From UHGV virus genome UHGV-1430452: DNA of 64,000 bases; one strand, 5' to 3'. The stretch comes from a virus. The translations under genes were made by a program, and so were the position numbers. Positions 8,263 through 35,632 of the stretch are shown here, piece by piece. Numbering within the stretch: the stretch's first letter is position 1; the number at the start of each line of letters is the position of its first letter. Under the pieces are notes generated by a model. It searched no databases, was not told where the DNA came from, and saw only the letters and a program-made list of their open reading frames with translations.

Positions 8263-8268
8263 AAAATA

Positions 8269-8430
8269 TCAATCCTCCTCGCGAGCACTAGACGAACCAT
8301 AACGATCTAATTCAATATCTACACCCTGCAAATTATCATAATTATGTATGGTAAGATCTGTCGATACCGTACCACCAAGCAATAAATCACCGATATCCTC
8401 AATACTAAGTTTTACAATAATTCTACTCAT
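8269..8430 (-). CDS. small hypothetical protein (53 aa)
   Basis: ORF missed by track; SD AGGAGG upstream; stop TGA embedded in junction GAGGAGGATTGATATTTT-ATG. Confidence 0.5.
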   Translation of the reverse strand: MSRIIVKLSIEDIGDLLLGGTVSTDLTIHNYDNLQGVDIELDRYGSSSAREED

Positions 8431-8445
8431 AAATATCAATCCTCC

Positions 8446-8820
8446 TTACCACTCATCAAACTCATGATAATCTTCGTCCTTGCAGCCACCCTTAGCCCAC
8501 AACAACACCTGTATCAGACGGTCAATATCATACTCTTCAAATATCAAGAATTGTTTGTAACCAAGGTAGTCATTAGTATCGCCATCATAAATCTCAAATG
8601 TCGCCTTAACAGATTCCTCATCGAACACGCTATCCAGATTCCACGGTTCCAACGGCATAACCCCATTAAAAACCCAATCGAAAATATAAAACATAGGATT
8701 TAATTCTCTACCATGATCGACCTTAATCGCTAATCTCTCTTCCAAAACACACGGAGTATACGGAGCAAATATAGTACCAGCTGGCATACGATTAAATGTT
8801 TTAAAATCTACTATCTTCAT
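8446..8820 (-). CDS. hypothetical protein (124 aa)
   Basis: co-directional ORF. Confidence 0.65.
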   Translation of the reverse strand: MKIVDFKTFNRMPAGTIFAPYTPCVLEERLAIKVDHGRELNPMFYIFDWVFNGVMPLEPWNLDSVFDEESVKATFEIYDGDTNDYLGYKQFLIFEEYDIDRLIQVLLWAKGGCKDEDYHEFDEW

Positions 8821-8823
8821 AAT

Positions 8824-9207
8824 TTATTCCTCCTTATCTTTTTCACACCACATTCCAACAAGATCACTATACACTTCTAGCATTTTTACATCTGGTTTAT
8901 CGTGGGTTTTATTATATTCATCAAAATATTCATTGAATGCACAAATACACTTCCAAATATACATTTGTTTAGAATCATTTGTTTCATCCATTTCAGGTCT
9001 TTTTGCTTCCTCCTTGACATTCACTTTAGCCCAAGCGAAATAATGCTCCATATGCTCTCCAGGACCAAAGCCAACACAACGCGTGCTAACTGATAACGTA
9101 ACATCATCGGGTTTTACTTTGTAACCGTTTCGACAACAATAGTCTGCTATAATCTCACAGACATCATCTTCTGATAAATTAATAGTAATGTTCTTATTAA
9201 TATTCAT
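8824..9207 (-). CDS. hypothetical protein (127 aa)
   Basis: co-directional ORF. Confidence 0.65.
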   Translation of the reverse strand: MNINKNITINLSEDDVCEIIADYCCRNGYKVKPDDVTLSVSTRCVGFGPGEHMEHYFAWAKVNVKEEAKRPEMDETNDSKQMYIWKCICAFNEYFDEYNKTHDKPDVKMLEVYSDLVGMWCEKDKEE

Positions 9208-9221
9208 AACTCTAATCCTCC

Positions 9222-9482
9222 TTATCTCACATCAACGTTGCATCCAAAATTAATCAGATAATCGGTAGTACAACCCAACACATGAGACATTCTAGCGATA
9301 ACATCTATTCTAGGGGTACGTTTACATCTCATATAATTAGACATAGCCGACTCAGATATACCGATTAATTTAGCCAATTCTTTTTGATTAATGCCGCATA
9401 AGTCCATACGGTAATTAAGCTTTTCAACGAAGCGTTTTCGCCATTCAATTTCACTAATAGATTTTATAGGAGTCATTTCCAT
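9222..9482 (-). CDS. XRE/Cro-like HTH protein (86 aa)
   Basis: HTH QKELAKLIGISESAMSNYMRCKR. Confidence 0.7.
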   Translation of the reverse strand: MEMTPIKSISEIEWRKRFVEKLNYRMDLCGINQKELAKLIGISESAMSNYMRCKRTPRIDVIARMSHVLGCTTDYLINFGCNVDVR

Positions 9483-9503
9483 AAAAATATCAATCCTCCT
9501 TAC

Positions 9504-9674
9504 TTACTTCTCTTCTTGGTACATTCTCTCTAAAGCAGTTCTAAATACATCAGCAGCACTCATACCTGTTGACTTACGAACCTTCTCTAAAATATCTAAT
9601 TCTTTCCTATTAACACGAACTAGATATCTTGTATCTCTAGGATCTGCTATCGGTTTTCTACCTCTCTTCGCCAT
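9504..9674 (-). CDS. small RHH-type protein (56 aa), paralog of 12151..12354
   Basis: translation MAKRGRKPIADPRD...TGMSAADVFRTALERMY; missed by track (<60 aa). Confidence 0.6.
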   Translation of the reverse strand: MAKRGRKPIADPRDTRYLVRVNRKELDILEKVRKSTGMSAADVFRTALERMYQEEK

Positions 9675-9771
9675 ACATATCGCCTCCCTTCTATGACAGA
9701 TACCATTAATACGAAAAACAAAAGAAGAGCCTCAACTAAATATCAATCTAGTCAAAGCTCTCCCACATCAA

Positions 9772-9843
9772 TTAATCTTTAAGATAACCAACTTTATATA
9801 AGAATCTTCCTACAACTGCCCAAAACTTCTGTCTGAGTGTCAT
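9772..9843 (-). CDS. possible micro-ORF (23 aa, hydrophobic)
   Basis: AGGAGGG SD 6 nt upstream; promoter-like motif 32 nt upstream. Confidence 0.3.
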   Translation of the reverse strand: MTLRQKFWAVVGRFLYKVGYLKD

Positions 9844-9874
9844 ATAGATCCCTCCTTTCTATTTGGTTTCTTTT

Positions 9875-9902
9875 CATAATAGGCGTTGTTAATATCACGA
9901 AA
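9875..9902 (-). promoter_or_regulatory. conserved promoter-like motif copy
   Basis: cataataggcgttgttaatatcacgaa. Confidence 0.5.
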
Positions 9903-9928
9903 GAAAAAGAGAGAAGAAGTATATCTCA

Positions 9929-10052
9929 GCTACACGTTTCTCTGCATCCATTTAAAGACACATTCACTGGTCAGTTCCAGTCCCACTAATATACTTTGAT
10001 GCTACACGTTTCTCCATACATAAGTATGTTCACTGGTCAGTTCCAGTCCCAC
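9929..10052. repeat. tandem direct repeat (2 units, period ~72 bp): GCTACACGTTTCTC ... TTCACTGGTCAGTTCCAGTCCCAC
   Basis: both blocks recur exactly; each has the hairpin ACTGG-N6-CCAGT; lies between two promoter-like motifs. Confidence 0.8.
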
Positions 10053-10072
10053 ATCAACTTTTATTCTTCTCT

Positions 10073-10100
10073 CATAATATAAAATGTATTTTTCGCGAAT
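10073..10100 (-). promoter_or_regulatory. conserved promoter-like motif copy, directly after a terminator-like hairpin
   Basis: cataatataaaatgtatttttcgcgaa. Confidence 0.5.
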
Positions 10101-10134
10101 AAAAAGAAGAGGCTGTAAAAGCCCCTTACTTGTT

Positions 10135-10518
10135 TTACTTAATTTTAATTGAGTCGTATTCCTCCTTAAATTTATTAAGCTTTTCCGTAAGTTCTTTTAA
10201 CTCCTCTTCATATCTTTGTTTTACTATTAATGACACTTCGGAATTGTGTTTGTCACATCCTTCGATTTTAGAGACTCGATAAGCTATCTTTCTGTTCAGT
10301 GTTCCTATAGCTTCTTCAAGAGCACCTTCTTTTACCACATCTCTCACGAACTCTATAGTTTCAGTGTTATTCTTTATCTGTATATGATTCTTACATATAA
10401 AGAACGTTACCAATCCTATAGAAACACATGAGACACCGGCAATTATTTTGCCATTGTTGTCCATAACCACTTCTTTGAAAGACCTCTTTCCTTTCTCTTT
10501 AACATCGTGCTTCTTCAT
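10135..10518 (-). CDS. membrane protein (127 aa)
   Basis: TM segment IIAGVSCVSIGLVTFFIC. Confidence 0.65.
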   Translation of the reverse strand: MKKHDVKEKGKRSFKEVVMDNNGKIIAGVSCVSIGLVTFFICKNHIQIKNNTETIEFVRDVVKEGALEEAIGTLNRKIAYRVSKIEGCDKHNSEVSLIVKQRYEEELKELTEKLNKFKEEYDSIKIK

Positions 10519-10551
10519 ATCAAATACCTCCTTTAGAAATTAATAGTTTTT

Positions 10552-10577
10552 CATAAAGGGGTATGTAATTTACGCGA
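10552..10577 (-). promoter_or_regulatory. conserved promoter-like motif copy
   Basis: cataaaggggtatgtaatttacgcga. Confidence 0.55.
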
Positions 10578-10595
10578 TCACAAAAACCTCAAATA

Positions 10596-10856
10596 TCAAT
10601 CCTCACTCTCTTTTTCTTCAAACATATCTGGTCTAGCGTATAAAGCTGCTTCAACCTCTTCTTCAGTCATTAGTGGTTTAATAGAACATCTGTCAAAATC
10701 CTGGTCATTAAATCTTACAACCATACCTTTTATCCCTTCATTCTGAGCGTGGATTGCTACAAGATCCATACAGGTTCTGAAAGTCCTCTTATCCACCGAC
10801 AATCCAGCTTTTACTTCTACGTTAACTTCTCCGATAATATTCTTTTTACTTTCCAT
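10596..10856 (-). CDS. hypothetical protein (86 aa)
   Basis: co-directional ORF; C-terminal ESED tail encodes downstream SD. Confidence 0.65.
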   Translation of the reverse strand: MESKKNIIGEVNVEVKAGLSVDKRTFRTCMDLVAIHAQNEGIKGMVVRFNDQDFDRCSIKPLMTEEEVEAALYARPDMFEEKESED

Positions 10857-10859
10857 AAT

Positions 10860-11150
10860 TCAATCCTCCTTCGTTTTATCTGCCATATCTCGAATAAGCA
10901 CAATCTCATTGATATCATCCTCAATACGACGATAAATGCTATCAAATTTTTCCTGATAACGATACATGTCTTGCAAATAGAAACTATGTATACGACTGTC
11001 TCGCTTACCGAAATTGACGATAACAGTTATGTATAAACCATCAAATTGGATATTAATTGGTATATCATTCGCGCACCCAAGATCTCGTAACATCATTAAT
11101 GCGGTAGTTACGTTAGTTATCATGTTGGTTTCATCGTTATAAAACTTCAT
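10860..11150 (-). CDS. hypothetical protein (96 aa)
   Basis: co-directional ORF, coupled junction. Confidence 0.65.
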   Translation of the reverse strand: MKFYNDETNMITNVTTALMMLRDLGCANDIPINIQFDGLYITVIVNFGKRDSRIHSFYLQDMYRYQEKFDSIYRRIEDDINEIVLIRDMADKTKED

Positions 11151-11156
11151 AAAATA

Positions 11157-11417
11157 TCAATCCTCCAATGGCTTACCAGAACAATCCACCTCGATCATCT
11201 CTGGATTAGTATGTAACGTTTTCCCAAACTCCATTAATTCGGTAAGTAATTTGTTAAACTTAATAATAAATTCTTTAAGTGCCTCCTCACGAGTTTCGCC
11301 ATACCCTTCGATAGTATAAATAGTATAGTCATCAAAATCTGCGCTTACGGTATGAGACTGCCACCTACCTTTTCCATCGTCATTATGTGTTAACTTCATA
11401 AACTCAATCCTCCTCAC
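11157..11417 (-). CDS. hypothetical protein (86 aa)
   Basis: co-directional ORF, coupled junction. Confidence 0.65.
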   Translation of the reverse strand: MRRIEFMKLTHNDDGKGRWQSHTVSADFDDYTIYTIEGYGETREEALKEFIIKFNKLLTELMEFGKTLHTNPEMIEVDCSGKPLED

Positions 11418-11695
11418 AACATTTCATCAGCTAATTCCAAACAAATCTCTCTGGCCTGATCCCAAATATCAATCTCAAATGACACTCTCTTATATTCTTC
11501 CGAAAGAGATGTGTATCGGTCACTAAGCTCCATGTATTCACGGTAGCTTAATGATTCTTCACCATCTTTTAGTTTTCTATCAATCTCAATCATCTCTCTC
11601 GATACAGCACATTTCTTTTTAATACACTCTACGTACTTATCGCTCATGGCCTGCCTTACTGCGGTGTTGTATTTGGTGATACTTTCTTTACTCAT
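11414..11695 (-). CDS. hypothetical protein (93 aa)
   Basis: co-directional ORF, 4-nt overlap. Confidence 0.65.
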   Translation of the reverse strand: MSKESITKYNTAVRQAMSDKYVECIKKKCAVSREMIEIDRKLKDGEESLSYREYMELSDRYTSLSEEYKRVSFEIDIWDQAREICLELADEML

Positions 11696-11701
11696 AAAAT
11701 A

Positions 11702-11959
11702 TCAATCCTCCTTCTTGATGACGTCTATGCTAGCCTGAGCTAAAACAAAACCATCCATGTAATCAGTATCGATATCAACTGTAATTTGTTGTTTCAACTG
11801 ATCGGTAAATAACCCTGCGATATCTTCTGAAATACTGTCGGCCGGTGTGTCTGATCTGTAAATTTTATTAACACGATACTTTATAATATCTTTTGTTGGT
11901 TCTTTAAGTCTTTTTAACTCTCTTTTTAACTTTTTATTCTTGATTTTAAGATTACTCAT
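11702..11959 (-). CDS. hypothetical protein (85 aa)
   Basis: co-directional ORF. Confidence 0.65.
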   Translation of the reverse strand: MSNLKIKNKKLKRELKRLKEPTKDIIKYRVNKIYRSDTPADSISEDIAGLFTDQLKQQITVDIDTDYMDGFVLAQASIDVIKKED

Positions 11960-11966
11960 AAAAACA

Positions 11967-12167
11967 TCATTCCTCCTTACTTCTTCTAACTTCCATTTCT
12001 AACCCAGATTGTATCCAACATCTTCTACATTTACTCTCATCATAGCCAGTAACACCACAGTTACAGCGCTCAGATGATTGTAAATCATAATCGTATGGAC
12101 AATTAAACTCGACTAATAAATCGAGCATCGTTTCTTTCTGATTTTCATTATCAAATATCATTTTCAT
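11967..12167 (-). CDS. small Cys-containing protein (66 aa)
   Basis: co-directional ORF; start overlaps upstream stop. Confidence 0.6.
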   Translation of the reverse strand: MKMIFDNENQKETMLDLLVEFNCPYDYDLQSSERCNCGVTGYDESKCRRCWIQSGLEMEVRRSKEE

Positions 12168-12354
12168 CGTTTAACACACCTCGCTCCGATTCCTTCTCAT
12201 ATAACTTCTCCAAAGCCACTCTAAAAACATCGGCCTGTCCCATACCAGTCATCTTGCAGCAATCCTCTAGCATTTTATTTTCTTTATCATTTATACGTAT
12301 CATGTAATGTTTCTTCCTCGGGTCTTTACTATAAGGTCTCCCTCGTCTGCCCAT
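12151..12354 (-). CDS. RHH-type DNA-binding protein (67 aa), paralog of 9504..9674
   Basis: GRRGRPYSKDPRK...TGMGQADVFRVALEKLY. Confidence 0.65.
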   Translation of the reverse strand: MGRRGRPYSKDPRKKHYMIRINDKENKMLEDCCKMTGMGQADVFRVALEKLYEKESERGVLNDENDI

Positions 12355-12392
12355 CGGTAATCACCTCCAATCAAATATGCTTAACTTTAAAT

Positions 12393-12425
12393 GCAAAAAG
12401 AGAAGACCCACATCCGAGCCTTCTC
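12393..12425 (-). terminator. rho-independent terminator
   Basis: 8-bp stem GAGAAGGC/GUCUUCUC with G-U pair, followed by U-rich tract. Confidence 0.55.
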
Positions 12426-12433
12426 CCATCAAT

Positions 12434-12643
12434 TTAACTATTATGTATTTTACCAGCGATAGCGTGTAGCAGATCCCTCTCATACTGTGTACGAAGCAGC
12501 ACGATTTTCTCGATAGCTAAATCACGAACTGCCTTTCTAGTACCAGGACTTTCAACCAAAGATTCGATAAATAAATCGTCTAAAATCTCTTCAAGGCCTT
12601 TCTTGAAATTCTCATTTCTTTCGGTAACACTGTAATCACTCAT
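12434..12643 (-). CDS. hypothetical protein (69 aa)
   Basis: co-directional ORF. Confidence 0.6.
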   Translation of the reverse strand: MSDYSVTERNENFKKGLEEILDDLFIESLVESPGTRKAVRDLAIEKIVLLRTQYERDLLHAIAGKIHNS

Positions 12644-12698
12644 TTTATTATACTAACCTCTTTTCTTGTAACCTACATACGGCTTAATATATGATGCA

Positions 12699-13900: not shown

Positions 13901-13913
13901 AATATCTCCTTTC

Positions 13914-14237
13914 TTAATCTACACATTTAACTTCGATGCCTGTCTCTTCTTCAAGTTCGCGGAAATAATCTTCCATTGTTTTACTTCCGTCTTCGATAGC
14001 GCCCATAAGCTCGTCAACGTACTCTAATGTCTTAGCGATACGCTTACTTCCGAATTTATGAATCCTATGTTCAGCCAGTGCGAAACAAGACATCAGGGCC
14101 TCCGTACTAAATGTGGAAGCCCTATCTGAAATATCTTTCTTGATCTTAGCAAGTTCATACTTGTCGATCACGACCTGATTTTTCTTGTTCTCAATCCTTT
14201 CTAATCGTTCGCGCATTCTCCTTTCAGCACGTCCCAT
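13914..14237 (-). CDS. hypothetical protein (107 aa)
   Basis: co-directional ORF. Confidence 0.65.
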   Translation of the reverse strand: MGRAERRMRERLERIENKKNQVVIDKYELAKIKKDISDRASTFSTEALMSCFALAEHRIHKFGSKRIAKTLEYVDELMGAIEDGSKTMEDYFRELEEETGIEVKCVD

Positions 14238-14241
14238 ACTT

Positions 14242-14511
14242 TTAATCCTCCTTTAAAAACGTATCTTCAAACTCCAAATCAGGCATAAAATTAGCGCATA
14301 TACTATCGTAGCGATAATCATAAAACTCGATCTCACTAACGAATATGAATATGCGCCCATCTTTTAAATAAATTATTCGTTCGGATACGTGTAACTCAGC
14401 AATGTCTTGTGCAATGTCACTCTTAGTCATAAACCGTTCAAATATATTTTGTGCCATCCGGTTGGTTCTTGATATTATTATGTATAAATTAGTATTTGGT
14501 TTTTCTGACAT
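14242..14511 (-). CDS. hypothetical protein (89 aa)
   Basis: co-directional ORF. Confidence 0.65.
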   Translation of the reverse strand: MSEKPNTNLYIIISRTNRMAQNIFERFMTKSDIAQDIAELHVSERIIYLKDGRIFIFVSEIEFYDYRYDSICANFMPDLEFEDTFLKED

Positions 14512-14861: not shown

Positions 14862-15023
14862 CTAATTGGACTCCTTTTGAGTTACTTCATTCTTTTCGGT
14901 GCTATTCTTTTCTTCGTTTTTGTTACGTTTCCCGCTCGCCATATTCAACGCAAATATAACAGTGGAAACAATACCTGCAATGTAGCTCAGTACGATAATC
15001 GCTAAAATCTCTGTGAATGCCAT
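14862..15023 (-). CDS. small membrane protein (53 aa)
   Basis: missed by track; SD AGGAGG; hydrophobic N-terminus. Confidence 0.5.
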   Translation of the reverse strand: MAFTEILAIIVLSYIAGIVSTVIFALNMASGKRNKNEEKNSTEKNEVTQKESN

Positions 15024-15026
15024 AAT

Positions 15027-15707
15027 TTAATCCTCCTTTTTAGATCCGGTGATAAGTTCTGAATATGGAAGAGTTTCGATCCATCTACAGAATTCTCTCC
15101 ACTCATCGAGCTTGTGGTTTTTTCTCTGGTGATACATGGCTGCCAGGACTTCATAATTGAGCATAACAGTACGTTTCTGGTTATAGCTGCTCGGAAGAAG
15201 CTGAATCATCTGCCACCAACAGCCTTTGTCTTTAGATTTTAAATAAGATTCACGGCACCAGTTTAACTGCTCTATTGTGGTATTAAGAACGGATAATGAT
15301 GCTTTGCATAAATGTTCACAACTAAAATCCTCCAGCGTAAATTCCTTCGCATGAATCTTGTGCATAGTTGAGCAAGAGTTAGCAACAGTACCGATTTTAT
15401 AAGTATCGAACTCCTTCCACCAATACAAAGGCGCTGTAATATCCACATACACAGTAATCATCCGCATAAATTTACGATGCTCTGTACCAGCGTTCCGAAG
15501 TCTTTTCATAAGGTCGAGGTCGTTTGGCCCGATTATAAAACGGCATGTATTACCGCACCAATCCGGTTTGAAACCACACGATTTACAAAGACCAGTATCG
15601 CATCCGTTACTACTATCACTCTTCTCCCAACTATTCATCGGATTCCGCATACCTCTAATGGCAGCTTCCCATCCCATAACTTCTACATTCTCAATTTTAA
15701 TACTCAT
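15027..15707 (-). CDS. Cys-rich protein (226 aa); tentative ThyX-like fold lacking the canonical RHR motif
   Basis: N-terminal VEVMGWEAAIRGMRNPMNS and ITVYVDITAPLYWW loosely resemble ThyX blocks; recalled alignment only. Confidence 0.6.
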   Translation of the reverse strand: MSIKIENVEVMGWEAAIRGMRNPMNSWEKSDSSNGCDTGLCKSCGFKPDWCGNTCRFIIGPNDLDLMKRLRNAGTEHRKFMRMITVYVDITAPLYWWKEFDTYKIGTVANSCSTMHKIHAKEFTLEDFSCEHLCKASLSVLNTTIEQLNWCRESYLKSKDKGCWWQMIQLLPSSYNQKRTVMLNYEVLAAMYHQRKNHKLDEWREFCRWIETLPYSELITGSKKED

Positions 15708-15719
15708 AATTTAATCCTC

Positions 15720-16463
15720 CTATTCAAGCCAATTGTTATCTAAATAATAAAATCCAATTACACAAGCGATAATTAACACAATCCATACTACCCAAAAGAA
15801 TATAAGCCACCCGTTTCCGTATTTTAATGTCTCGTACGTTTCATCAATGCTCATATTGTTATAGAAATTAGTGTTATCAGGTATGGTTCCGTCTTTTAAC
15901 CTGGCAAATATAGTTCCTTTGAATTTGGTTGGTGTACCATAATACTTATATCGAACGTCACTAGATTCCTTAAGGGTATCGATATAATCCGGTGATGGAA
16001 TATTGATTTTACTAGACGGAAAAGTAACACCACAAAATATCAATTCTTTGCAGGTCTTATCCTCGCTTCCAACCCTATCCCATGTCCAGTAGTACTCTGT
16101 TCTTGTATGTGTGGTTCTATTTTTGCCAGAACCGGTAGTATAAGTGACAATTCGAGTATGCATTGTATATCGCTCTTTCACTTTTTCGACATACATATAT
16201 TTTCCGTCTATTTCCGGATAAGTAACCGTGTCAACAGCTTTTAGATTTCCATTCACAAAAGCGTTTCCGACATTGGTCCTCATACCATACTCGAATATAT
16301 CGGACTCTTTGATTTTTACTGCTTTGTTGTAGATCTCATTCTTATCCATTTGGTGCTCCGAAATCTTACTAGAAATCAGAACACCAATAAGTAATAGAAT
16401 GGCTATAATAGAAATACTGGCTAACACTTCCCTTTTAGTTATTTCAATATCATAGTCTCCCAT
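15720..16463 (-). CDS. membrane protein (247 aa), TM helices at both ends; partner of LemA
   Basis: hydrophobic ends; immediately downstream of LemA gene. Confidence 0.65.
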   Translation of the reverse strand: MGDYDIEITKREVLASISIIAILLLIGVLISSKISEHQMDKNEIYNKAVKIKESDIFEYGMRTNVGNAFVNGNLKAVDTVTYPEIDGKYMYVEKVKERYTMHTRIVTYTTGSGKNRTTHTRTEYYWTWDRVGSEDKTCKELIFCGVTFPSSKINIPSPDYIDTLKESSDVRYKYYGTPTKFKGTIFARLKDGTIPDNTNFYNNMSIDETYETLKYGNGWLIFFWVVWIVLIIACVIGFYYLDNNWLE

Positions 16464-21524: not shown

Positions 21525-21998
21525 TTAAATATAGTCCAATATGTTTCCATCCACATTGAAGTCTAATAATGCCGTATTCTTATAACCATTGATAAAATCG
21601 AAATTACATTCATTCATTAAACCAAAATCTACGAAATTGTCTCCAATAGGATTCTCCTCGTCATAAACCCAGCCAACAACTGCTCCTGCTTTTGTTCTCG
21701 GAATGCCTAACGTATCGTAGACATCATTCAGAAATAAATGTCCTCTTGATCTCAGCAAAACATTACAATATTTCTGCTGATCTTTCAAAAAGTTCATATT
21801 ATACTCTGGATCTTTAATCCACCCAATACAGCTATCATCGAAAAACCTAGCATATTGACTAAAGTTTTCGGTTTTGTCAACCCTGTTTCCTGGATACTCT
21901 TCTTCTGATTTCAGATTGAATAATTTCTTTAATTCCTCATCATCAATTTCAATAGTTACATTAATCTTCATAATTATTCTCCTTTCAAATATAAACAT
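21525..21998 (-). CDS. hypothetical protein (157 aa) sharing a ~110-aa domain with the C-terminus of 44029..44967
   Basis: FFDDSCIGWIKDPEYNMNFLKDQQKY...GDNFVDFG...LLDFNVDGNIL aligns by eye with 44029 C-terminus. Confidence 0.7.
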   Translation of the reverse strand: MFIFERRIIMKINVTIEIDDEELKKLFNLKSEEEYPGNRVDKTENFSQYARFFDDSCIGWIKDPEYNMNFLKDQQKYCNVLLRSRGHLFLNDVYDTLGIPRTKAGAVVGWVYDEENPIGDNFVDFGLMNECNFDFINGYKNTALLDFNVDGNILDYI

Positions 21999-23605: not shown

Positions 23606-23865
23606 AATTCGTCCTCCAAATTTAATCTCGGAAAATGTTTATCTAATAGCTCCAAAAGTTTTTCTGCACATTCTGGACACATGTCTAGCCGTAAATGTTT
23701 GTGTCTATTATTTCTATCCTTGATAGTGAGCGATAACCAAGATTCATCATAAATAGGATCTAACGCAATTTTTTCGTCAATGACATGGTCAGCCTCAAAC
23801 CGTATCTTACACATATCGCAAGTATGTTTGATTTTTTTAAATTTTCTTCCTAAATCTGTCGCCAT
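23602..23865 (-). CDS. zinc-finger protein (87 aa)
   Basis: CDMC...CPEC pairs. Confidence 0.6.
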   Translation of the reverse strand: MATDLGRKFKKIKHTCDMCKIRFEADHVIDEKIALDPIYDESWLSLTIKDRNNRHKHLRLDMCPECAEKLLELLDKHFPRLNLEDEL

Positions 23866-23937
23866 TTAAGTTACTCCCTTCTAAAATATAAACAAAAAGA
23901 AAGAGAGTCCAAATTAATGAACCCTCTCCTCCTGAAA

Positions 23938-24215: not shown

Positions 24216-24848
24216 TCAATATGGAATCTTCCACTTGCCTCCTACTTTCACAGCTCCTGGATGCAACCCCTGTCTACACTGTTTCTGAATTGTAGCTTTT
24301 GTACAACCTAATTTTTCAGCGAGTTCTTCTGCGGTAAGCATGATTACTTTTCTTTCTTCTGTATTGTCCTTGTTAACCGCGATCGAAAGTTTTGGTATAG
24401 TTAAATTATTAAGTGCTTGTTTTAATTCATCCAAAGCCGATAATTCTTCCTCCTCTTTTTCTTCCGGTAACCATTTCTTAAATACTTCATAATAGTTACC
24501 CTTATTTCCAAGAGCCTTCTTAGCAATTGCCATAGCCAGACCTTTCTCCGGATCGTAAATATCATCTTCTCCTGATTTTACGATAGTCTTAGTTCCATCT
24601 TCCCACAGAACTACAGTTACCGGATCATTGAAATATACTTTCTTAATTGTCATAGTGTTTTCTCTCCTCTCTGAACTTTCAACTCCAAACATTTTATTCA
24701 GAGCATGTTTAGCTAACATTTTCATTTCTTTATCAATATCCATAGCAAGTACCGGATTTATTAAAGTATTAGACTCGTAATGACTCCATCCGACACACCC
24801 CCTACATGCATAGGTGTTTTTATTTTTACATCCATAACAACTCAACAT
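24216..24848 (-). CDS. DNA-binding protein with N-terminal Cys cluster and C-terminal excisionase/MerR-type HTH
   Basis: LTAEELAEKLGCTKATIQKQCRQGLHPGAVKVGGKWKIP resembles HTH_17. Confidence 0.65.
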   Translation of the reverse strand: MLSCYGCKNKNTYACRGCVGWSHYESNTLINPVLAMDIDKEMKMLAKHALNKMFGVESSERRENTMTIKKVYFNDPVTVVLWEDGTKTIVKSGEDDIYDPEKGLAMAIAKKALGNKGNYYEVFKKWLPEEKEEEELSALDELKQALNNLTIPKLSIAVNKDNTEERKVIMLTAEELAEKLGCTKATIQKQCRQGLHPGAVKVGGKWKIPY

Positions 24849-24988
24849 AATTTTATTTTCCTTTCTTAAATATCAATCTTTTACATAATGAAGACCCTCC
24901 CAAACTACGAGAGAGCCAAGTTACTCAAACGGATTATCTACCTTTGGCATTGTAAATCCCACTACGCATCACCTCACTTTGTTTTTTT

Positions 24989-25171
24989 TTATTCGTAAGC
25001 AGACATTTTTACAAAAGATTCGTCATGTTTGTTAAACTGTATGCTAGCATGACAATATGGTCCGTAAACTTCGATATATACATGTTTCGGATCAATACAT
25101 TCATAATAGCTATTTTCGTATTTGACACCCCATTTATTTAACCATTCTTTCCATTGTTCTAGATCTGTCAT
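24989..25171 (-). CDS. hypothetical protein (60 aa)
   Basis: co-directional ORF. Confidence 0.55.
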   Translation of the reverse strand: MTDLEQWKEWLNKWGVKYENSYYECIDPKHVYIEVYGPYCHASIQFNKHDESFVKMSAYE

Positions 25172-25206
25172 AATATTATTCTCACTTTCTAAATATCAAC
25201 TCTAAC

Positions 25207-30688: not shown

Positions 30689-30916
30689 TCACTTTCTCCT
30701 TTCATAACTCTCCTTTACATGATCAATCCTCTTACCATTACCATCCAGAATCATCGGACCTTTTCTACCCATTACGATAGTAGATCCTTCCGGTAAATCG
30801 GCAAATATCTCAAGCATTTTCTTTTGATACACAGTAAGTTTTATGCCGGATACTTTTTCGACGAAATCGACAATATTTAATTCCGGCAATTGTTCAATTA
30901 AAGCTTTTTCTTCCAT
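30689..30916 (-). CDS. hypothetical protein (75 aa)
   Basis: co-directional ORF. Confidence 0.6.
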   Translation of the reverse strand: MEEKALIEQLPELNIVDFVEKVSGIKLTVYQKKMLEIFADLPEGSTIVMGRKGPMILDGNGKRIDHVKESYERRK

Positions 30917-30940
30917 TAAATATCACTTGTTTCTCCTTTT

Positions 30941-31276
30941 CTACTTATCAAAATTCCTAACTTCATTAATACTAAAACCGGCAATATCACAGGCTCCAGT
31001 ATCAGTTGGCGTATACCTTGCACCTTCGATTGACGGATACATGAATTCGATCATTGCAAAGTTAGCCACATCAGCTAGGAACTCTGTATTTCCGGTTTCT
31101 TTGTACTTTTGAATGCGCTTCTCAATATTTCCTAACGCATCCATACACTTGAACTTATCGTAGTTTTCTTTCATAGGTCCGTACTTATAATAAGACATAA
31201 CCATCATATCTTTACGAATCTTATCAAACCTTTCAGAATATTCAGTCTTTAAAATATCTTCTATCGCTTTACTCAT
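30941..31276 (-). CDS. hypothetical protein (111 aa)
   Basis: co-directional ORF. Confidence 0.65.
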   Translation of the reverse strand: MSKAIEDILKTEYSERFDKIRKDMMVMSYYKYGPMKENYDKFKCMDALGNIEKRIQKYKETGNTEFLADVANFAMIEFMYPSIEGARYTPTDTGACDIAGFSINEVRNFDK

Positions 31277-31567
31277 TTAATCCTCCTCGCTATAATCCTC
31301 AATTTTAATTCCTAATAAGATTTTCCACATTTTCTTTTGTAACCAGTTAAAGTGTTGGTTCACTTTAATAATAGTAGCAAAACAATTTTTACCTATAGTC
31401 AGTTTCGAACCATTTTTGATTTTAGGAATATAAATAGTCCCGATTCCTTGTTCTAAAGTTGGTTCTTCTTTCTCGTCTTTAATAGGTCGATTCGCAAAAT
31501 AAACCAATAAGACTATACCGACTATAGCGAAACCAAATAAACCCAAAGCTATTAAAATATCAATCAT
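31277..31567 (-). CDS. membrane protein (96 aa)
   Basis: N-terminal TM IDILIALGLFGFAIVGIVLLV. Confidence 0.65.
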   Translation of the reverse strand: MIDILIALGLFGFAIVGIVLLVYFANRPIKDEKEEPTLEQGIGTIYIPKIKNGSKLTIGKNCFATIIKVNQHFNWLQKKMWKILLGIKIEDYSEED

Positions 31568-31806
31568 TTATTACCTCCAAACGGTGTTCTCACAGTAACA
31601 TCTTCTCTGAACTCTTTACATCGAACAGAGGCCTCAAAAATATCACTAATAGTTTCTCCAAGTTTTTCGATTCCTCTTTTTGCATCCAAGAAATCCTGCT
31701 GATAATCCATTTTGCATACGCTTTTATGAATACATTTTTCACAACTTGTTTCTCCTTTAAATATCATAGTTTTCTCCTTTCTAATAAACACCCATCTTCC
31801 TAGCAA
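31564..31806 (-). CDS. hypothetical protein (80 aa)
   Basis: co-directional ORF. Confidence 0.6.
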   Translation of the reverse strand: MLGRWVFIRKEKTMIFKGETSCEKCIHKSVCKMDYQQDFLDAKRGIEKLGETISDIFEASVRCKEFREDVTVRTPFGGNK

Positions 31807-32122
31807 ACTCTAGTATTTCCTCCATAGTTAACCACTCAGGTTTATCATTCTCGTCGAAAGAATTCCAAATATCTTTCATGTTCTGGATATGCTGCTTTTC
31901 ATCTTTAGCCCAGAGAACGTTAGCACTTCCTCCAATCCTCAAGTAATACTCACAATCCTGTCTCATTCTGTCTAACATCATATATCTGAAACGCTTTTCT
32001 GATTTCAAAATATCTTTCATGGTTAACAGCCCCTTCATTTTTTGTAATAAATCTTTCTTTACCGGAAGAGCAGGTTTTTCTTTAGTTAAATAAAAATAAG
32101 TTACCATAGACATTCCTTTCAT
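31781..32122 (-). CDS. hypothetical protein (113 aa)
   Basis: co-directional ORF. Confidence 0.65.
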   Translation of the reverse strand: MKGMSMVTYFYLTKEKPALPVKKDLLQKMKGLLTMKDILKSEKRFRYMMLDRMRQDCEYYLRIGGSANVLWAKDEKQHIQNMKDIWNSFDENDKPEWLTMEEILEFARKMGVY

Positions 32123-32124
32123 TT

Positions 32125-32337
32125 CTAATCCGTATATTCATGAACTGTATTTAGAACTTTACTAGCACCAGAACAACCGCCTATTTCGATAGATAACGTG
32201 GCTAAATGTTCTGTTAAATACGTCGCAGCTTCAATATCGTTAACGTATTTGTTACATATGATCTGACAGGCTGCGATTCGTTTAAGCAATTCGTCCTGTT
32301 TATTTTTAGTTAATAGTTTCATAACCTCTCCTTTCAT
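32125..32337 (-). CDS. hypothetical protein (70 aa)
   Basis: co-directional ORF. Confidence 0.6.
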   Translation of the reverse strand: MKGEVMKLLTKNKQDELLKRIAACQIICNKYVNDIEAATYLTEHLATLSIEIGGCSGASKVLNTVHEYTD

Positions 32338-32705
32338 TTGTATTCAAATAGCACTTGCGTATCTGGACTGCATTCTTTTCGTTCTTCTTTTTCGCAATAT
32401 GGGCAACCAAACTTGTCGTAGTTTAGATGCTTACAAAATTCACAAGTTCTTAAAAACGGAACTGGAAAATTACCAAAATCCCAGAAAGATATCTCCCCGC
32501 ACTTAGAACATTTATACTTAATGATTCCGTCATTATCCTCTATAAATTGTCCATTTTTAATAAGTTCGTTGATGCACTTAGGACAATATATGAAGGTATG
32601 TTGTTTGTTCTTATTTCCATGTTTGATAATGAAGTCTAACATTATAGACCACACCATAATGATTATCACTGCTATTAAAATATCAATCATACTTACTCCT
32701 TTCAT
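32334..32705 (-). CDS. membrane-anchored zinc-ribbon protein (123 aa)
   Basis: N-terminal TM; CPKC...CSKC...CEFC...CPYC. Confidence 0.65.
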   Translation of the reverse strand: MKGVSMIDILIAVIIIMVWSIMLDFIIKHGNKNKQHTFIYCPKCINELIKNGQFIEDNDGIIKYKCSKCGEISFWDFGNFPVPFLRTCEFCKHLNYDKFGCPYCEKEERKECSPDTQVLFEYK

Positions 32706-33205
32706 CTATGCTGATCGCAGCACCCATTATCGTAATCGAATTCTTCTCGATCTAATGCGCAGTAATAGCCAGATATGTTATCGCAAGTCTCTTCATCATA
32801 ATAGTCTTCAAAATCACAATGAACACACTCCCCGCAGCAATGTTTTTCTCTAATATCTTCAACATTCGCATACTCATCATCTCCGGTTAAACGTAATAAT
32901 TCTTTAATCTCATCGTCTGTTAAATCGAGTTCACCAGAGTTAAGTCTACTTCTCAAATATTCTGAAAATACAACATCCGAATTACTTGTATAATCAGAAA
33001 TGATATCACCTAACTTGTCATAAGCATCCGGTCCTTCTCCATATTCCTCAGCACATTTCTTACTATTCGGAATATAGTACATACACTGATCTCCGGAAAC
33101 ATCACAATAGTATCTTCCTTCATCCGGATCAAATTTTGCAGCTTTACAAGACATAGTTTTCTCCTTTCTACAATTAACAAAATTCAAGTCCATACCAAGT
33201 ATCAT
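32702..33205 (-). CDS. acidic Cys-rich protein (167 aa)
   Basis: co-directional ORF. Confidence 0.65.
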   Translation of the reverse strand: MILGMDLNFVNCRKEKTMSCKAAKFDPDEGRYYCDVSGDQCMYYIPNSKKCAEEYGEGPDAYDKLGDIISDYTSNSDVVFSEYLRSRLNSGELDLTDDEIKELLRLTGDDEYANVEDIREKHCCGECVHCDFEDYYDEETCDNISGYYCALDREEFDYDNGCCDQHR

Positions 33206-33458
33206 TGATTTTAGTTACTTTTAATTTGTCTTCATAATACTCGTTTTTATAATTATCAATCAGCTTCTTTTTAGCTTTTGATAAATTTGTAAACCATTCC
33301 TTATCATACATATCGTAATCCCATTCCCAACTGTCTGGTTCAGTCGCTGTACCGAAGCTATCAATAATAAAGCTATCCTTGCCTAAGAACCCGACAGTAT
33401 CGACTAAGATACCATCGTCGTAAATACAATATACTTTTCTACCAAGCTTTGGTTTCAT
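33174..33458 (-). CDS. hypothetical protein (94 aa)
   Basis: co-directional ORF. Confidence 0.6.
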   Translation of the reverse strand: MKPKLGRKVYCIYDDGILVDTVGFLGKDSFIIDSFGTATEPDSWEWDYDMYDKEWFTNLSKAKKKLIDNYKNEYYEDKLKVTKINDTWYGLEFC

Positions 33459-33471
33459 AGTTTCCCCTTTC

Positions 33472-33615
33472 CTATTTATTGCTCTTTAATTCGTTAGATA
33501 ACGATAACACGATAAGTCCAGCAAATATCAACCAAGCATCCGGTGAAATATTTGAAGTCTGTGCGTTAGTTCCAAAGACAAAACATAAAATTAATAGTAT
33601 TAATATAGTAATCAT
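33472..33615 (-). CDS. small membrane peptide (47 aa)
   Basis: missed by track; strongly hydrophobic. Confidence 0.4.
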   Translation of the reverse strand: MITILILLILCFVFGTNAQTSNISPDAWLIFAGLIVLSLSNELKSNK

Positions 33616-33638
33616 ATATTTATTCGAATCCTTTCCGT

Positions 33639-33687
33639 AAAAATAAAACAAAAGAGTCTCAACTAAATATCAATCTAGTTAAGACTC
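33639..33687 (-). terminator. rho-independent terminator
   Basis: stem GAGTCT/AGACTC extended by AACTA/TAGTT, then U-rich tract. Confidence 0.65.
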
Positions 33688-33701
33688 CTTTGTGTGATAA
33701 A

Positions 33702-33917
33702 TCATCTTTTTTTAGTAATCGGAATATTCAAATTCATACCACTCTCTTTCAAATCCTTACGGACATTATCGAATTCCTCTTTCCACTTATCAGTCCAGTC
33801 TCCGGCCTTTGTCTTTTCAGGTCTTGTGAACCTGATTTTAGACAGATCGCATCCCTTTTCTTTAAGTCCGTTTGCTACTTCGATAATTTCCTTAATAATT
33901 TTTCCATCAGTATTCAT
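33702..33917 (-). CDS. hypothetical protein (71 aa)
   Basis: SD AAAGGAGGA; motif upstream. Confidence 0.65.
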   Translation of the reverse strand: MNTDGKIIKEIIEVANGLKEKGCDLSKIRFTRPEKTKAGDWTDKWKEEFDNVRKDLKESGMNLNIPITKKR

Positions 33918-33952
33918 TTCAATTCCTCCTTTAATAAAAAAATGTTTTATTT

Positions 33953-33977
33953 CATTAAAGTAGATGTTTTTTACGCG
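33953..33977 (-). promoter_or_regulatory. conserved promoter-like motif copy
   Basis: cattaaagtagatgttttttacgcg. Confidence 0.5.
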
Positions 33978-34235
33978 TTATTTCCTAATAAACTGTCCAC
34001 ATGATCCGCAATAATGATCATACTCAGCTGTAGGTATTGGTGCCTCGCATGTCGGACATAATTTAAGAGATCCCTGGTCTGGATCGTCCGCCACTCGATA
34101 TTTTAATTCACTAACTACTTCTGTAAAAAGATCGGCGTTAGGTCCACCGTTTTTAATTTCCAAATCTCTAAGTTCTCTCATTCTATTTACAATATTGATT
34201 ACTCTCTGATTTCTTTCTTCTAAATATTTTTTCAT
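33978..34235 (-). CDS. zinc-ribbon protein (85 aa)
   Basis: CPTC...CGSC. Confidence 0.6.
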   Translation of the reverse strand: MKKYLEERNQRVINIVNRMRELRDLEIKNGGPNADLFTEVVSELKYRVADDPDQGSLKLCPTCEAPIPTAEYDHYCGSCGQFIRK

Positions 34236-34236
34236 C

Positions 34237-34851
34237 TTATTTCTCCTTTCTTACTACCCTAGCTCTCTCAAAAATATAATTGTTAATATTATCAGGACCG
34301 TTACCATAGCGTTGTACATATGGCACTCCTAAAACATTTCTACCATTTACAAATCTATGTTCTCCGATCCCGATAACTTCGTGTTTCTCATATCGTCCAC
34401 TACTATTCATAATGAACACAATATCACCGACTTTAATCTCATTTACTGGAGTTTCTACAGCATCTAGGAATTCTCCGAGCTGTTCTTTTAATGGTTGACG
34501 AATATCAATCTCTTTAAGGAATTCGTCTAGATCATAACCTTCATGATAGTCTTCACCACCAACATGTCTAACAATATCCCAGTCTTTTACGACATAAATA
34601 CCATTATCCAACCAGTAATCCTCGACTTCACTTTCCCTTACATCAGTCTCAATTCCGATAGATAAGTTTCCACCAAAGAAATTACCTACGACCTGACAGA
34701 ATCTAGCCATACCGTAGGAATCATCAAATCCTCTATGCTCTTTTAACTCACAGTATTTAAGAAATGCAGTAACGCTATCAATACCTCCATTCCAATGCAA
34801 ATATACTCCGATGTCTTTTCCTTCTGGTTTTACGATAGCTCTGTTACCCAT
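34237..34851 (-). CDS. hypothetical protein (204 aa)
   Basis: co-directional ORF. Confidence 0.7.
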   Translation of the reverse strand: MGNRAIVKPEGKDIGVYLHWNGGIDSVTAFLKYCELKEHRGFDDSYGMARFCQVVGNFFGGNLSIGIETDVRESEVEDYWLDNGIYVVKDWDIVRHVGGEDYHEGYDLDEFLKEIDIRQPLKEQLGEFLDAVETPVNEIKVGDIVFIMNSSGRYEKHEVIGIGEHRFVNGRNVLGVPYVQRYGNGPDNINNYIFERARVVRKEK

Positions 34852-34874
34852 GTTAAGTCAGCTCCTAAGTTGAT

Positions 34875-35075
34875 TTATTTTAAAATGCCTTTATGTCTAC
34901 ATAACTCTAGCAACATTTCATTCTCTTCTTGTAAAGCCTCTAATTTATCGGCAGCATTCTTACAGTAAATATGAATCGCATTAGACATTTTATCCGTTTC
35001 ATCCAACGGAACTTTCGTTAATGGAAACATATTTACAAGCCAACGTAGAGACTTAGCTTCTGGTACTTCTTTCAT
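34875..35075 (-). CDS. hypothetical protein (66 aa)
   Basis: co-directional ORF. Confidence 0.55.
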   Translation of the reverse strand: MKEVPEAKSLRWLVNMFPLTKVPLDETDKMSNAIHIYCKNAADKLEALQEENEMLLELCRHKGILK

Positions 35076-35106
35076 TCGTTTCTCCTTTCAAATATCAGCT
35101 CCTAAT

Positions 35107-35256
35107 TTAGTCTATCTTTACTATTTGTTCTATGCCGCCATCCCTAAGCTCACGATTTACAACTTGTGCTCCGTAAATTTCAAAATAGTCTGATTCTACA
35201 ATTTGCAAATCCTTTGGCAATTGTTCTAAAATATCGATAAGTTCACCTACTGTCAT
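35107..35256 (-). CDS. small hypothetical protein (49 aa)
   Basis: missed by track; SD AAAGGAGAAACT. Confidence 0.45.
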   Translation of the reverse strand: MTVGELIDILEQLPKDLQIVESDYFEIYGAQVVNRELRDGGIEQIVKID

Positions 35257-35281
35257 TTAGTTTCTCCTTTCAAATATCAAC

Positions 35282-35632
35282 TCACAAATCCTCATAGCTA
35301 TGAGCAATCAATGCGTAAATACTTTTATCTAAAACAAACGCATTATCGCCATCATTTCCGAAACCGATTACTCTATGATTCTTCAAGTTGTCACCGTGGA
35401 ATTTCGCATCAATACAACTTTCATCTTTGCTAGTCTGCATAACACAAAAAGTGACATAATTATCGTTAGGAAGTTTTATAGATATAGTGTTCATCCAGTC
35501 TTTAGATTTATGGTCCAAATGAGACATATCAACTGTATAGTGATTACATTTGTTGAATGTCGGATAACCTAATTTCTCAGCTTCCTCGATTGAACATTTA
35601 GTAAATATCAATTCTTTTTGTGTTGCTTCCAT
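35282..35632 (-). CDS. hypothetical protein (116 aa)
   Basis: co-directional ORF. Confidence 0.65.
   Translation of the reverse strand: MEATQKELIFTKCSIEEAEKLGYPTFNKCNHYTVDMSHLDHKSKDWMNTISIKLPNDNYVTFCVMQTSKDESCIDAKFHGDNLKNHRVIGFGNDGDNAFVLDKSIYALIAHSYEDL

Follow-up and report, generated by a model that had tools for sequence, protein, structure and literature searches.

What is the function of a short sequence that recurs, nearly unchanged, at one gene junction after another in a viral genome? This question is raised by UHGV virus genome UHGV-1430452, of which a stretch of 64,000 nucleotides (nt) was analysed (hereafter the window). The window is that of a temperate phage, and between 1 and 56 kb the minus strand carries nearly every gene. 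An initial annotation had noted that many adjacent genes are joined by the same cassette of roughly 20 nt, wherein the last codons of the upstream gene encode the Shine-Dalgarno sequence (SD) of the next one, the stop codon is a TGA embedded in GATTGA and an ATG follows almost immediately, and had concluded that translation is tightly coupled along long gene runs. This headline interpretation proves to be only partly right. We hold with good confidence that the junction has a composite, start-associated and class-specific anatomy, wherein an ordinary SD overlaps a second, separable motif of 8 to 11 nt. This motif is polar, is anchored to start codons, and marks the early genes of widespread gut Lachnospiraceae phages and prophages that carry a predicted YonO-type polymerase. 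Position numbers are those of the whole window, and the genes concerned are all on the minus strand.

The repeated junction is a real, non-random feature of the window. When at most one mismatch is allowed, AGGAGGATTGA matches 17 times, always on the minus strand, compared to 2.0 matches expected, which is far more than chance would provide. The shorter GGAGGATTGATATTT is present five times on the minus strand and is absent from the plus strand, and the full junction, [A/T]GGAGGATTGATATTT(T0-2)ATG with a length of 19 to 21 nt, likewise occurs five times, exclusively within 8.26-11.71 kb (Table 1). However, the single anatomy that had been assigned to nine sites is fully present at only three of them (8263, 11151 and 11696), each with a gap of 6 nt between stop codon and ATG. 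At two others (8431 and 9483) a TAA has already ended the upstream gene before the motif is reached, and the TGA of the motif closes no gene. One further site (10578) is without a downstream ATG, and the gene that follows it has its own SD 72 nt further on. The motif lies after the ATG at two sites and before the SD at the last. The proposal that the TGA within GATTGA serves as the upstream stop codon is similarly correct for some junctions and not for others. It holds for three of the five full junctions in the window and fails for two, and among related phages 43 of 87 non-redundant SD-TGATATTT-ATG junctions use this TGA to end an open reading frame (ORF) of at least 40 codons, whereas 44 do not.

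One half of the junction requires no unusual explanation. Our gene calls were generated by a heuristic of our own, and junction counts are therefore approximate. By these calls, the early block carries ~125 same-strand junctions, of which 65 have a gap of no more than 25 nt and 37 have a gap of no more than 10 nt or an overlap. The SD begins inside the upstream ORF at 34 of the 65 tight junctions. Because the final codons of an upstream gene often double as the SD of the next one, the same C-terminal tripeptides appear repeatedly, namely KED, EED and LED (GGAGGAT followed by TGA or TAA), KGE (AAAGGAGAATGA), KEK and KEE. The explanation offered earlier for the KED and EED termini, as translations of GGAGGAT, is thus borne out, and such tails are only to be expected where genes are closely packed and SDs are strong. 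Among the listed junctions with an SD inside the ORF, the stop codon is located -8 to +7 nt from the next ATG, and two larger overlaps are probably miscalls of the heuristic.

Long same-strand runs with stop codons 0-7 nt from the next ATG are compatible with translational coupling, and an SD in the last codons with a stop codon beside the next start is textbook junction anatomy. As in classical coupled junctions, the SD resides within the upstream ORF and the stop codon adjoins or overlaps the next start. Any spacer will serve at a classical junction, whereas here a spacer of 8-11 nt is conserved across a phage clade and is also present away from junctions. Termination-reinitiation coupling probably does operate at the three perfect junctions, although as a by-product of packing and not as the reason for spacer conservation. 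As an account of why the spacer is conserved, coupling falls short: about half of the junctions do not use the TGA of the motif as a stop, and the motif also occurs where no junction exists.

The spacer is separable from the rest of the junction. In the window, the sense strand carries 15 copies of GATTGATATTT and the antisense strand none, compared to 0.12 copies expected, and the core T[GT]ATATTT is found 75 times sense and 0 times antisense (70 and 0, respectively, in the early block). The usual form in this phage is RGATTGATATTT, or (GAT)TGATATTT, and the motif can also be written as UGAUAUUU or GGAGGAUUGAUAUUUUAUG. A longer form, TTGATATTT, is confined to 4.7-35.6 kb. Copies of GATTGATATTT reside in SD-ATG spacers, 5′ of SDs (35279, 35097, 25198 and 24875), after ATGs, in hairpins and in coding sequence.

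Selection on the motif acts at the level of nucleotides. Coding sequences in the window carry 45 copies of T[GT]ATATTT, which is 3.5-fold more than the 13.0 +/- 2.9 copies obtained from synonymous-codon shuffles that kept protein sequence and codon usage. Likewise, TTGATATTT occurs 11 times in coding sequence between 3.5 and 36 kb, compared to 2.35 copies expected, and 0 times between 36 and 56 kb. The polarity of the motif is strict, and its reverse complement is absent from the sense strand, where 8.7 copies are expected from a Markov model or 3.9 from codon shuffles. Both stop-free frames of the motif are used within coding sequence, and the third frame, which contains TGA, is seen only as a stop codon. 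Therefore, an upstream protein often ends inside the motif simply because one of its frames contains TGA.

Two genes whose starts carry the motif after the ATG (31548-31567 and 32671-32690) encode apparently hydrophobic N-termini beginning MIDILIA, and their sequences diverge after the shared 20-mer, with no detectable protein similarity. Two phage tRNA genes, at 47958-48031 and 4438-4511 on the minus strand, are the only matches in an Rfam scan, and one of them is a tRNA-Met(CAT). The other is not assigned by ARAGORN, and its 7-nt anticodon loop, CTTATAT, reads as the anticodon TAT, which would correspond to a tRNA-Ile that decodes AUA. AUA is the codon used where the motif lies in the frame TTG ATA TTT.

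The position of the motif is tied to start codons. Among 432 non-redundant TGATATTT sites from the window and its relatives, the distance from the end of the motif to an ATG is 0, 1, 2 or 3 nt at 29, 30, 9 and 3 sites, respectively. The ATG overlaps the motif (ATGATATTT) at 22 additional sites, and at 31 sites the motif lies 14-22 nt upstream of an ATG, just 5′ of the SD. The first 30 nt of genes hold 42 of the 229 copies found in coding sequence. The variant TTATATTT favours the position 5′ of the SD, with most of its start-linked copies 14-22 nt before the ATG. No other conserved position or partner element is evident from -45 to +50 around the motif. The register is fixed relative to the ATG, while the offset from GGAG(G) to TGAT varies from 0 to 3 nt. 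Moreover, the median distance from GGAG to ATG in these phages is 11-12 nt when the motif is present, versus 8.5-9 nt when it is absent. The motif is thus squeezed into the SD-ATG spacer, and is not an optimised spacer.

The motif also distinguishes classes of genes. We collected 98 related phage or prophage loci by using the polymerase gene as an anchor. Upstream of this gene, among early genes, these loci carry 1071 sense copies where 214 are expected, and 140 antisense copies where 184 are expected. Downstream, among late genes, there are 101 sense copies compared to 46 expected, and the density of the motif is ~5 times lower than on the early side. The window itself has one copy in its 4.4-kb polymerase operon, two in the 5 kb at its late end, and none in the polymerase gene, beyond which no other large gene precedes the genome end. 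Enrichment of at least 3-fold is observed in 71 of the 98 loci, Lachnospiraceae prophages among them. Some lineages carry TTATATTT, AGATATTT or GGATATTT in place of TGATATTT, and the 8-mer is conserved across phages whose polymerases share only ~50% identity. Since an intrinsic device for translation or coupling would be expected in late genes as well, the motif behaves as a mark of the early/middle class. Together with its separability and the long SD-ATG spacing, the scarcity of the motif in late genes indicates that the cassette consists of two overlapping signals, and that the TGA stop is opportunistic.

The relatives of this phage are numerous. Matches were obtained for ~600 IMG/VR contigs, and related prophages reside in Lachnospiraceae and other Clostridia, including Hungatella hathewayi, Eubacterium ramulus and Lachnospira hominis. 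The closest relative, L003, is 90% identical in the polymerase and is carried on an 89.5-kb contig, wherein the polymerase gene is followed by genes for an HNH endonuclease, terminase and portal, which are late genes. A search of GenBank phages for near-identical DNA with 8-16 kb of the window yielded no match. The closest deposited record, MT835495.1, has a GC content of 45% and only two copies of TTGATATTT, and was set aside as uninformative. Some loci whose polymerases are ~62% identical (L022-L031, L071 and L077) are without an excess of TGATATTT. These loci instead carry four to seven copies of TGCCCACTTTT upstream of the polymerase gene, some on both strands, which may represent a different regulatory repeat.

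Table 1. Coordinates of junctions, motif-bearing elements and landmark genes in the window
Feature	Position	Strand	Details
Full junction AGGAGGATTGATATTTTATG	8260-8279	minus	Internal TGA (8269-8271) is the stop of the upstream gene
Neighbours of 8260-8279		minus	Upstream 53-aa gene (58-codon ORF) ends ..REED-stop; downstream 94-aa gene begins 8262
Junction AGGAGGATTGATATTTATG	8428-8446	minus	Upstream gene 8446-8820 (..HEFDEW-stop); TAA stop overlaps first A of SD
Junction AGGAGGATTGATATTTTTATG	9480-9500	minus	Upstream gene (..MYQEEK-stop) stops at TAA, 3 nt 5′ of SD
Full junction TGGAGGATTGATATTTTATG	11148-11167	minus	Upstream 88-codon ORF ends ..PLED-stop at internal TGA; downstream 96-aa gene begins 11150
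Full junction AGGAGGATTGATATTTTATG	11693-11712	minus	Upstream 98-codon ORF ends ..KKED-stop at internal TGA; downstream 93-aa gene begins 11695
Partial variant AGGAGGATTGAATTATG	10854-10870	minus	Upstream gene ends ..TKED-stop at TGA; spacer without TATTT half of motif
Partial variant AGGAGGATTGAGTTTATG	11397-11414	minus	TGA overlapping 5′ end of SD is the upstream stop
GAGGATTGATATTTGAGG (site 10578)	10587-10604	minus	TGA ends 87-codon ORF (..ESED-stop); no start codon next
TAA variant AGGAGGATTAAAAGTATG	14235-14252	minus	Upstream gene ends ..LKED-stop; SD in last codons, without TGATATTT
Further TAA-type sites	15021-15037 (..KKED-stop), 15705-15721, 31274-31287 (..SEED-stop)	minus	SD in last codons, without TGATATTT
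ATGATTGATATTTTAATAGC (site 31556)	31548-31567	minus	Motif forms codons 2-4 of the gene, after the ATG; Met-Ile-Asp-Ile-Leu
ATGATTGATATTTTAATAGC, identical 20-mer (site 32681)	32671-32690	minus	Opens a non-homologous gene; motif after the ATG
TGATATTTGAAAGGAGAAACTAAATG (site 35270, TTGATATTTGAAAGGAGAAACTAAATG)	35254-35279	minus	Motif directly 5′ of SD
Motif-then-SD layout, other sites	35073-35097, 25169-25198, 24846-24875, 23863-23891, 21969-21994, 49080-49108	minus	
Intrinsic-terminator-like hairpin	33648-33693	minus	GATTGATATTT in upper stem and loop
Similar motif-bearing hairpin	9723-9764	minus	
Related hairpin	35687-35716	minus	CTATATTT in loop
Early/middle gene block	4655-55830	minus	69 of the 75 T[GT]ATATTT copies in the window, all sense; 1 more at 4181, 5 beyond 55830
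Putative RNA polymerase gene, 1056 aa, PHROG 4291	305-3475	minus	GADFDGDTV two-barrel metal-binding motif; C-terminal helix-turn-helix (HTH) resembling sigma region 4
Primase-polymerase gene, 1408 aa	37592-41818		
Serine integrase gene	56726-58312	plus	
Tail-fibre gene	61271-63703		

How might such a composite junction be exploited by the phage? Two signals share the same few nucleotides. The first is a strong SD (AGGAGG) in the last codons of the upstream gene, as is common in this genome. The second is the lineage- and strand-specific T[GT]ATATTT, which takes one of three places, up to 2 nt ahead of the ATG, immediately 5′ of the SD, or across the ATG itself, and which is also selected inside early coding regions. 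Where the motif occupies the SD-ATG spacer and the frame permits, in about half of cases, its TGA becomes the upstream stop codon, which yields the order E-D-stop, 6 nt, ATG. In the mechanism that we propose, a trans-acting factor of the phage or its host would read the motif on the mRNAs of early genes, at the ribosome-binding region or beside it, and would thereby control translation or decay of the early class at the switch to the polymerase operon and late genes. A ribosome at initiation covers about -20 to +15. The preference of the motif for this region, in three registers, is the behaviour to be expected of a translational operator or a nuclease tag, for which T4 RegA and RegB provide precedents. 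Taken as a whole, we judge the chances to be about even that an SD overlaps a start-associated, class-specific motif that is read on early mRNAs by a trans-acting factor. Considered by itself, a reader that acts at the level of RNA is a tentative proposal that we regard as somewhat doubtful.

Several observations weigh against this mechanism. The late side of the 98 loci still exhibits a 2.2-fold excess of sense-strand copies, and about two-thirds of all motif copies are not at starts but reside inside coding regions, where a pure translational operator does not need them. The avoidance of the reverse complement on the sense strand hints at selection on DNA. Furthermore, our searches for a reader revealed no candidate: among the 25 of 30 families listed from a Pfam scan of 116 early proteins, none is a sigma factor, a RegA/RegB-like protein or an obvious RNA-binding family, and comparison of 20 mid-sized proteins with PHROGs gave no sigma factor, RegA or RegB. 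The matches obtained from these two resources include an exonuclease, a single-strand annealing protein, a single-stranded DNA-binding protein, an anti-repressor, HTH proteins, a LemA-family protein, HNH/NUMOD4 endonuclease domains and a ribonucleotide-reductase activase. Likewise, the predicted RNA accessibility of motif sites (0.396) matches that of control sites with the same composition (0.381; p=0.57), and because accessibility equals that of controls, nothing positively points to RNA recognition.

A more elaborate version of the proposed mechanism is unlikely. In this version, the motif would be a class tag carried by the early transcripts of a large and mostly uncultured group of Lachnospiraceae phages, and read by a phage factor unrelated to T4 RegA or RegB. 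This factor would block or cut the RNA at ribosome-binding regions, terminator loops and coding sites, and would thus switch off early genes once transcription passes to the putative YonO-type polymerase. Alternatively, and no less novel, the phage polymerase itself might stop at the motif as a sequence-specific signal; this polymerase probably lacks the domains that act in termination at hairpins.

The latter alternative is one form of a broader explanation, the main rival of an RNA-level reader, wherein the motif serves as a polar signal in DNA. It could be a -10-like promoter element on which a phage specificity factor, so far unrecognised, would act (the -10 sequence GATATT of SPO1 late promoters and the T4 late sequence TATAAATA are comparable), an orientation-dependent repressor site that blocks elongation, like the stoperators of phage L5, or a sequence-specific pause or termination signal that bars the phage polymerase from entering the early region, comparable to the class II signal of T7. 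Overall, we rate signals of this kind as rather unlikely, although the strict strand polarity and the avoidance of the reverse complement speak for them. In addition, [G/T]ATATT is a good -10-like hexamer, and the canonical TATAAT is depleted in coding sequence (12 copies compared to 20.4 expected). The sole classical sigma-A-type early promoter, TTGACA-N16-GATATT at ~55880, carries TGATATTC over its -10 element, which is the only hint of repressor-bound sites that match an early-promoter operator. At 23863-23929 and 24846-24917, the order terminator-motif-SD-ATG leaves no room for another promoter, the motif-rich zone stops just upstream of the polymerase operon, and late genes are sparse in copies.

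Other characteristics of the motif are difficult to reconcile with a signal in DNA. A partner element conserved between -45 and +50 is lacking, and the commonest start-linked sites are those between SD and ATG (71) or over the ATG (22). A promoter reading is strained by these 93 sites, since a transcript that begins 6-8 nt downstream would lack the start of that very gene; the 31 TGATATTT sites and most start-linked TTATATTT sites that lie 14-22 nt before the ATG do have a placement that suits a promoter. Transcription units are already accounted for by ~14 long promoter-like elements, ATTCGCGAAAATTACA..CTATTATGAGA, located directly after terminators. No sigma factor is present among the PHROGs and Pfam matches listed. 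For lysogeny genes on the opposite strand, copies that keep to their DNA strand are in slight excess (22 versus 9.8, in related, non-independent loci wherein one conserved site dominates), which speaks clearly neither for nor against a signal in DNA. A scan for sigma-70-type promoters was of no help, with fewer matches than in shuffled sequence (52 versus 71, and 64 versus 73).

These ~14 elements of the window are copies of a promoter-like sequence of ~30 bp, ATTCGCGAAAATTACAnnnnCTATTATGAGA, on the minus strand, which begin at 55008, 51567, 51254, 51028, 50675, 50245, 48062, 24174, 21009, 17446, 10099, 5945, 4707 and 4576. There is no TTGACA-like -35 element at normal spacing. The copies usually come right after the T-tract of a terminator, and twice they come right before a tRNA gene. 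The two copies before the polymerase operon are of a variant type, TTCACGAAA(A/T)TTTCT..., and TTCGCGAA recurs in L048 and L067. ATTCGCGAAAATTACAnnnnCTATTATGAGA elements may constitute the promoter class of early/middle units.

A second possibility is that all of the 20-mer works as one cassette, optimal by itself for ribosome binding and coupling, at which a ribosome would terminate at the TGA, be held by the SD just behind it and restart 6 nt further on. Its spacer would then be conserved for no other reason than being the best one. The stop codon within the spacer at the three perfect junctions of the window and at the 43 clade junctions noted above, together with the fixed position of the motif relative to the ATG, agree with such a function. 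Moreover, the 3′ end of 16S rRNA in Firmicutes is usually GGAUCACCUCC, and a UGAU that follows GGAGG would lengthen pairing with it; a continuous GGAGGTGATATTT is present in a few relatives. However, because the offset between GGAG(G) and TGAT varies by up to 3 nt, this pairing is not conserved. The TGA is left unused at half of the junctions, and the SD-ATG spacing exceeds the norm of the phage itself by 2-3 nt. Copies of the motif are not confined to the spacer but extend to coding regions, hairpins and sites 5′ of SDs, and they are ~5 times less dense on the late side, which is home to the highly expressed genes. An optimal cassette is therefore a distinctly unlikely explanation.

Recombination offers a third possibility, wherein shared junction sequences would act as linkers that promote the exchange of modules and would be spread by this exchange, as has been proposed for PeSL elements. 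In support of this, homology between the window and L003 breaks at cassettes (at 9492, which is inside the motif, at 8424 and at 8279-8231), L003 joins different genes by way of the same cassette, and the five exact copies all lie within 3.5 kb. However, gene boundaries are where mosaic joints survive selection in any event, and an identity of 19-21 nt is short for homologous exchange. Recombination cannot be the primary explanation because it does not account for polarity, coding copies, the ATG register or the 8-mer conserved in the clade, and we consider it very unlikely. The homology breaks are likely a consequence of exchange at gene boundaries, possibly with help from the shared 19-21 nt.

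Finally, descent of the cassettes from a recent tandem gene duplication is improbable in the extreme, even though they cluster at 8-12 kb in a run of similar-sized small genes: to the sensitivity of all-against-all BLASTP, the genes that flank the five exact cassettes are not paralogous except for one three-protein family, the DNA immediately flanking the cassettes is unrelated between copies, and the same junction joins unrelated genes in many relatives. This family does not track the cassettes; one of its members follows a cassette and another precedes one. Because the flanking genes are unrelated and the flanks differ, the cassette is not duplication debris, and the junction thus survives the refuting condition that the initial annotation had set, namely confinement to recently duplicated genes.

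Other candidates were discarded. A Chi-like or replication-priming function conflicts with the sparseness of the motif in the polymerase gene and in same-strand late genes, and polarity does not reverse beyond the polymerase gene. For the NusG pause motif TTNTTT and for CsrA GGA sites, the consensus does not match the conserved positions.

We examined whether the junction motif resembles elements that have been described in other phages, and a literature search for its sequence produced no relevant match. The closest functional parallel is the start-associated sequence (SAS) of Cluster K mycobacteriophages, an asymmetric repeat of 13 bp with 11-19 copies, all in one orientation and each preceding the start of a gene by 3-7 bp, the genes being unrelated to each other (PMC3203893). 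The SAS is restricted to the non-structural half of the genome, contains the SD core, sometimes includes the upstream stop codon, and has no known function (Pope et al., 2011; PMC3203893). Similarly, the motif described here is a short, asymmetric repeat in one orientation with many copies. Some of these lie near the starts of unrelated genes (71 of the 432 non-redundant TGATATTT sites are 0-3 nt before an ATG, in a strong register), where the repeat overlaps the SD and sometimes the upstream stop codon. It is likewise conserved across sub-lineages and favours the non-structural side, as evident by the contrast between the early and late counts given above, the late side being the one with terminase and portal genes. 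The two differ in sequence, however, with 5′-GGGATAGGAGCCC in the SAS and SD plus GATTGATATTT here, and the hosts in the present case are Lachnospiraceae and other Clostridia, which belong to another phylum. In addition, the part conserved here is separable from the SD and lies between SD and ATG, whereas the SAS surrounds the SD. Coding regions hold two-thirds of the copies of the present motif and terminator hairpins hold some, and no partner inverted repeat like that of the extended SAS is seen. By this analogy, the motif appears to work like the SAS without being a member by sequence or host, and is best filed as a variant of the start-associated repeats.

Other parallels are less complete. 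Like the stoperators of L5-type temperate phages, the motif provides many asymmetric sites arranged along the direction of transcription, in short intergenic spaces near starts and stops. Stoperators are repressor-bound sites of 13 bp that match the early-promoter operator and occupy both genome arms, whereas the core here spans 8-11 nt, late genes are ~5-fold poorer in it and many copies are in coding sequence. In phage T4, RegB cleaves the GGAG of the SD, and the AU-rich sites bound by RegA overlie the AUG and are loosely conserved. Both target short motifs in the ribosome-binding regions of many early, and not late, mRNAs and thereby shut off the early class. The present motif shares this placement at the ribosome-binding regions of early and not late genes, but no RegA or RegB homologue is found among the Pfam families listed. 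PeSL elements of T4-type phages are mobile cassettes of several tens of bp that comprise an early promoter and a stem-loop. As in these cassettes, the sequence recurs between small ORFs of a plastic early region and at mosaic boundaries, although the element here spans 19-21 nt and is without promoter or hairpin.

The motif is clean and widespread, and it overturns no expectation. It does provide, beside the mycobacteriophage case, an independent second instance of the puzzling start-associated sequence phenomenon, and it could be used as a marker of early versus late gene class when phages of this type are annotated. The question of what reads the motif is testable because culturable lysogens carry related prophages. 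These include Hungatella hathewayi DSM 13479 (prophage at about 205-228 kb of NZ_CP102274.1), Eubacterium ramulus strain 21 (contig61, L106), in which motif copies are clearly in excess upstream of the polymerase gene, and Lachnospira hominis NSJ-43. The enrichment of the motif varies among their prophages.

The polymerase used as an anchor throughout deserves separate mention. From its PHROG label, its metal-binding motif and established knowledge, we infer that the product of the gene at 305-3475 is a single-subunit RNA polymerase of the YonO type. A search of PDB sequences with this protein returned no relative. Identity of the phage with SPbeta is ruled out, since the polymerase is only distantly YonO-like. 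The promoter used by YonO was left undefined in the YonO paper. The window also encodes a helicase, a single-strand annealing protein and an exonuclease, together with small DNA-binding proteins at 7-12.4 kb.

Many independent contigs end 100-350 nt past the polymerase gene, among them L004, L008, L009, L012, L036 and L040, and the window itself does likewise. The end of the window near this gene (1-305) is a GC-rich stretch, ...GGGGGAGGGGCTCTGCAAAAATGCACCCCCTCC, whereas L003 is permuted and runs on into late genes. This pattern of contig ends suggests that the polymerase gene is closely followed by a physical genome end. Two adjacent minus-strand genes (4758-5713) that lie a short way upstream of the polymerase operon give Pfam matches of the NUMOD4/HNH_3 homing-endonuclease type. 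Their counterpart in L003 is 75% identical, compared to 84% for the adjacent polymerase block.

Several other repeated elements are evident in the early block. Four minus-strand paralogues of PHROG 2152 (49330-50097, 47042-47869, 44029-44967 and 21525-21971) are spread through it, and these probably correspond to the four DUF6353 matches of the Pfam scan. A direct repeat, GTGGGACTGGAACTGACCAGTGAA(C/T), is present twice, ~55 nt apart, at 9960-10060 on the minus strand, within a non-coding stretch of 460 nt in which a terminator and a short, unannotated ORF also lie. At 7778-7964 on the minus strand, T(T/C)GGTCTGCTAATAA is present in seven direct copies packed into ~190 bp. This array lies between a gene ending at 7978 and an HTH repressor-like gene (7089-7514) whose promoter region also has GGTCTGC, and it looks like an operator or iteron array.

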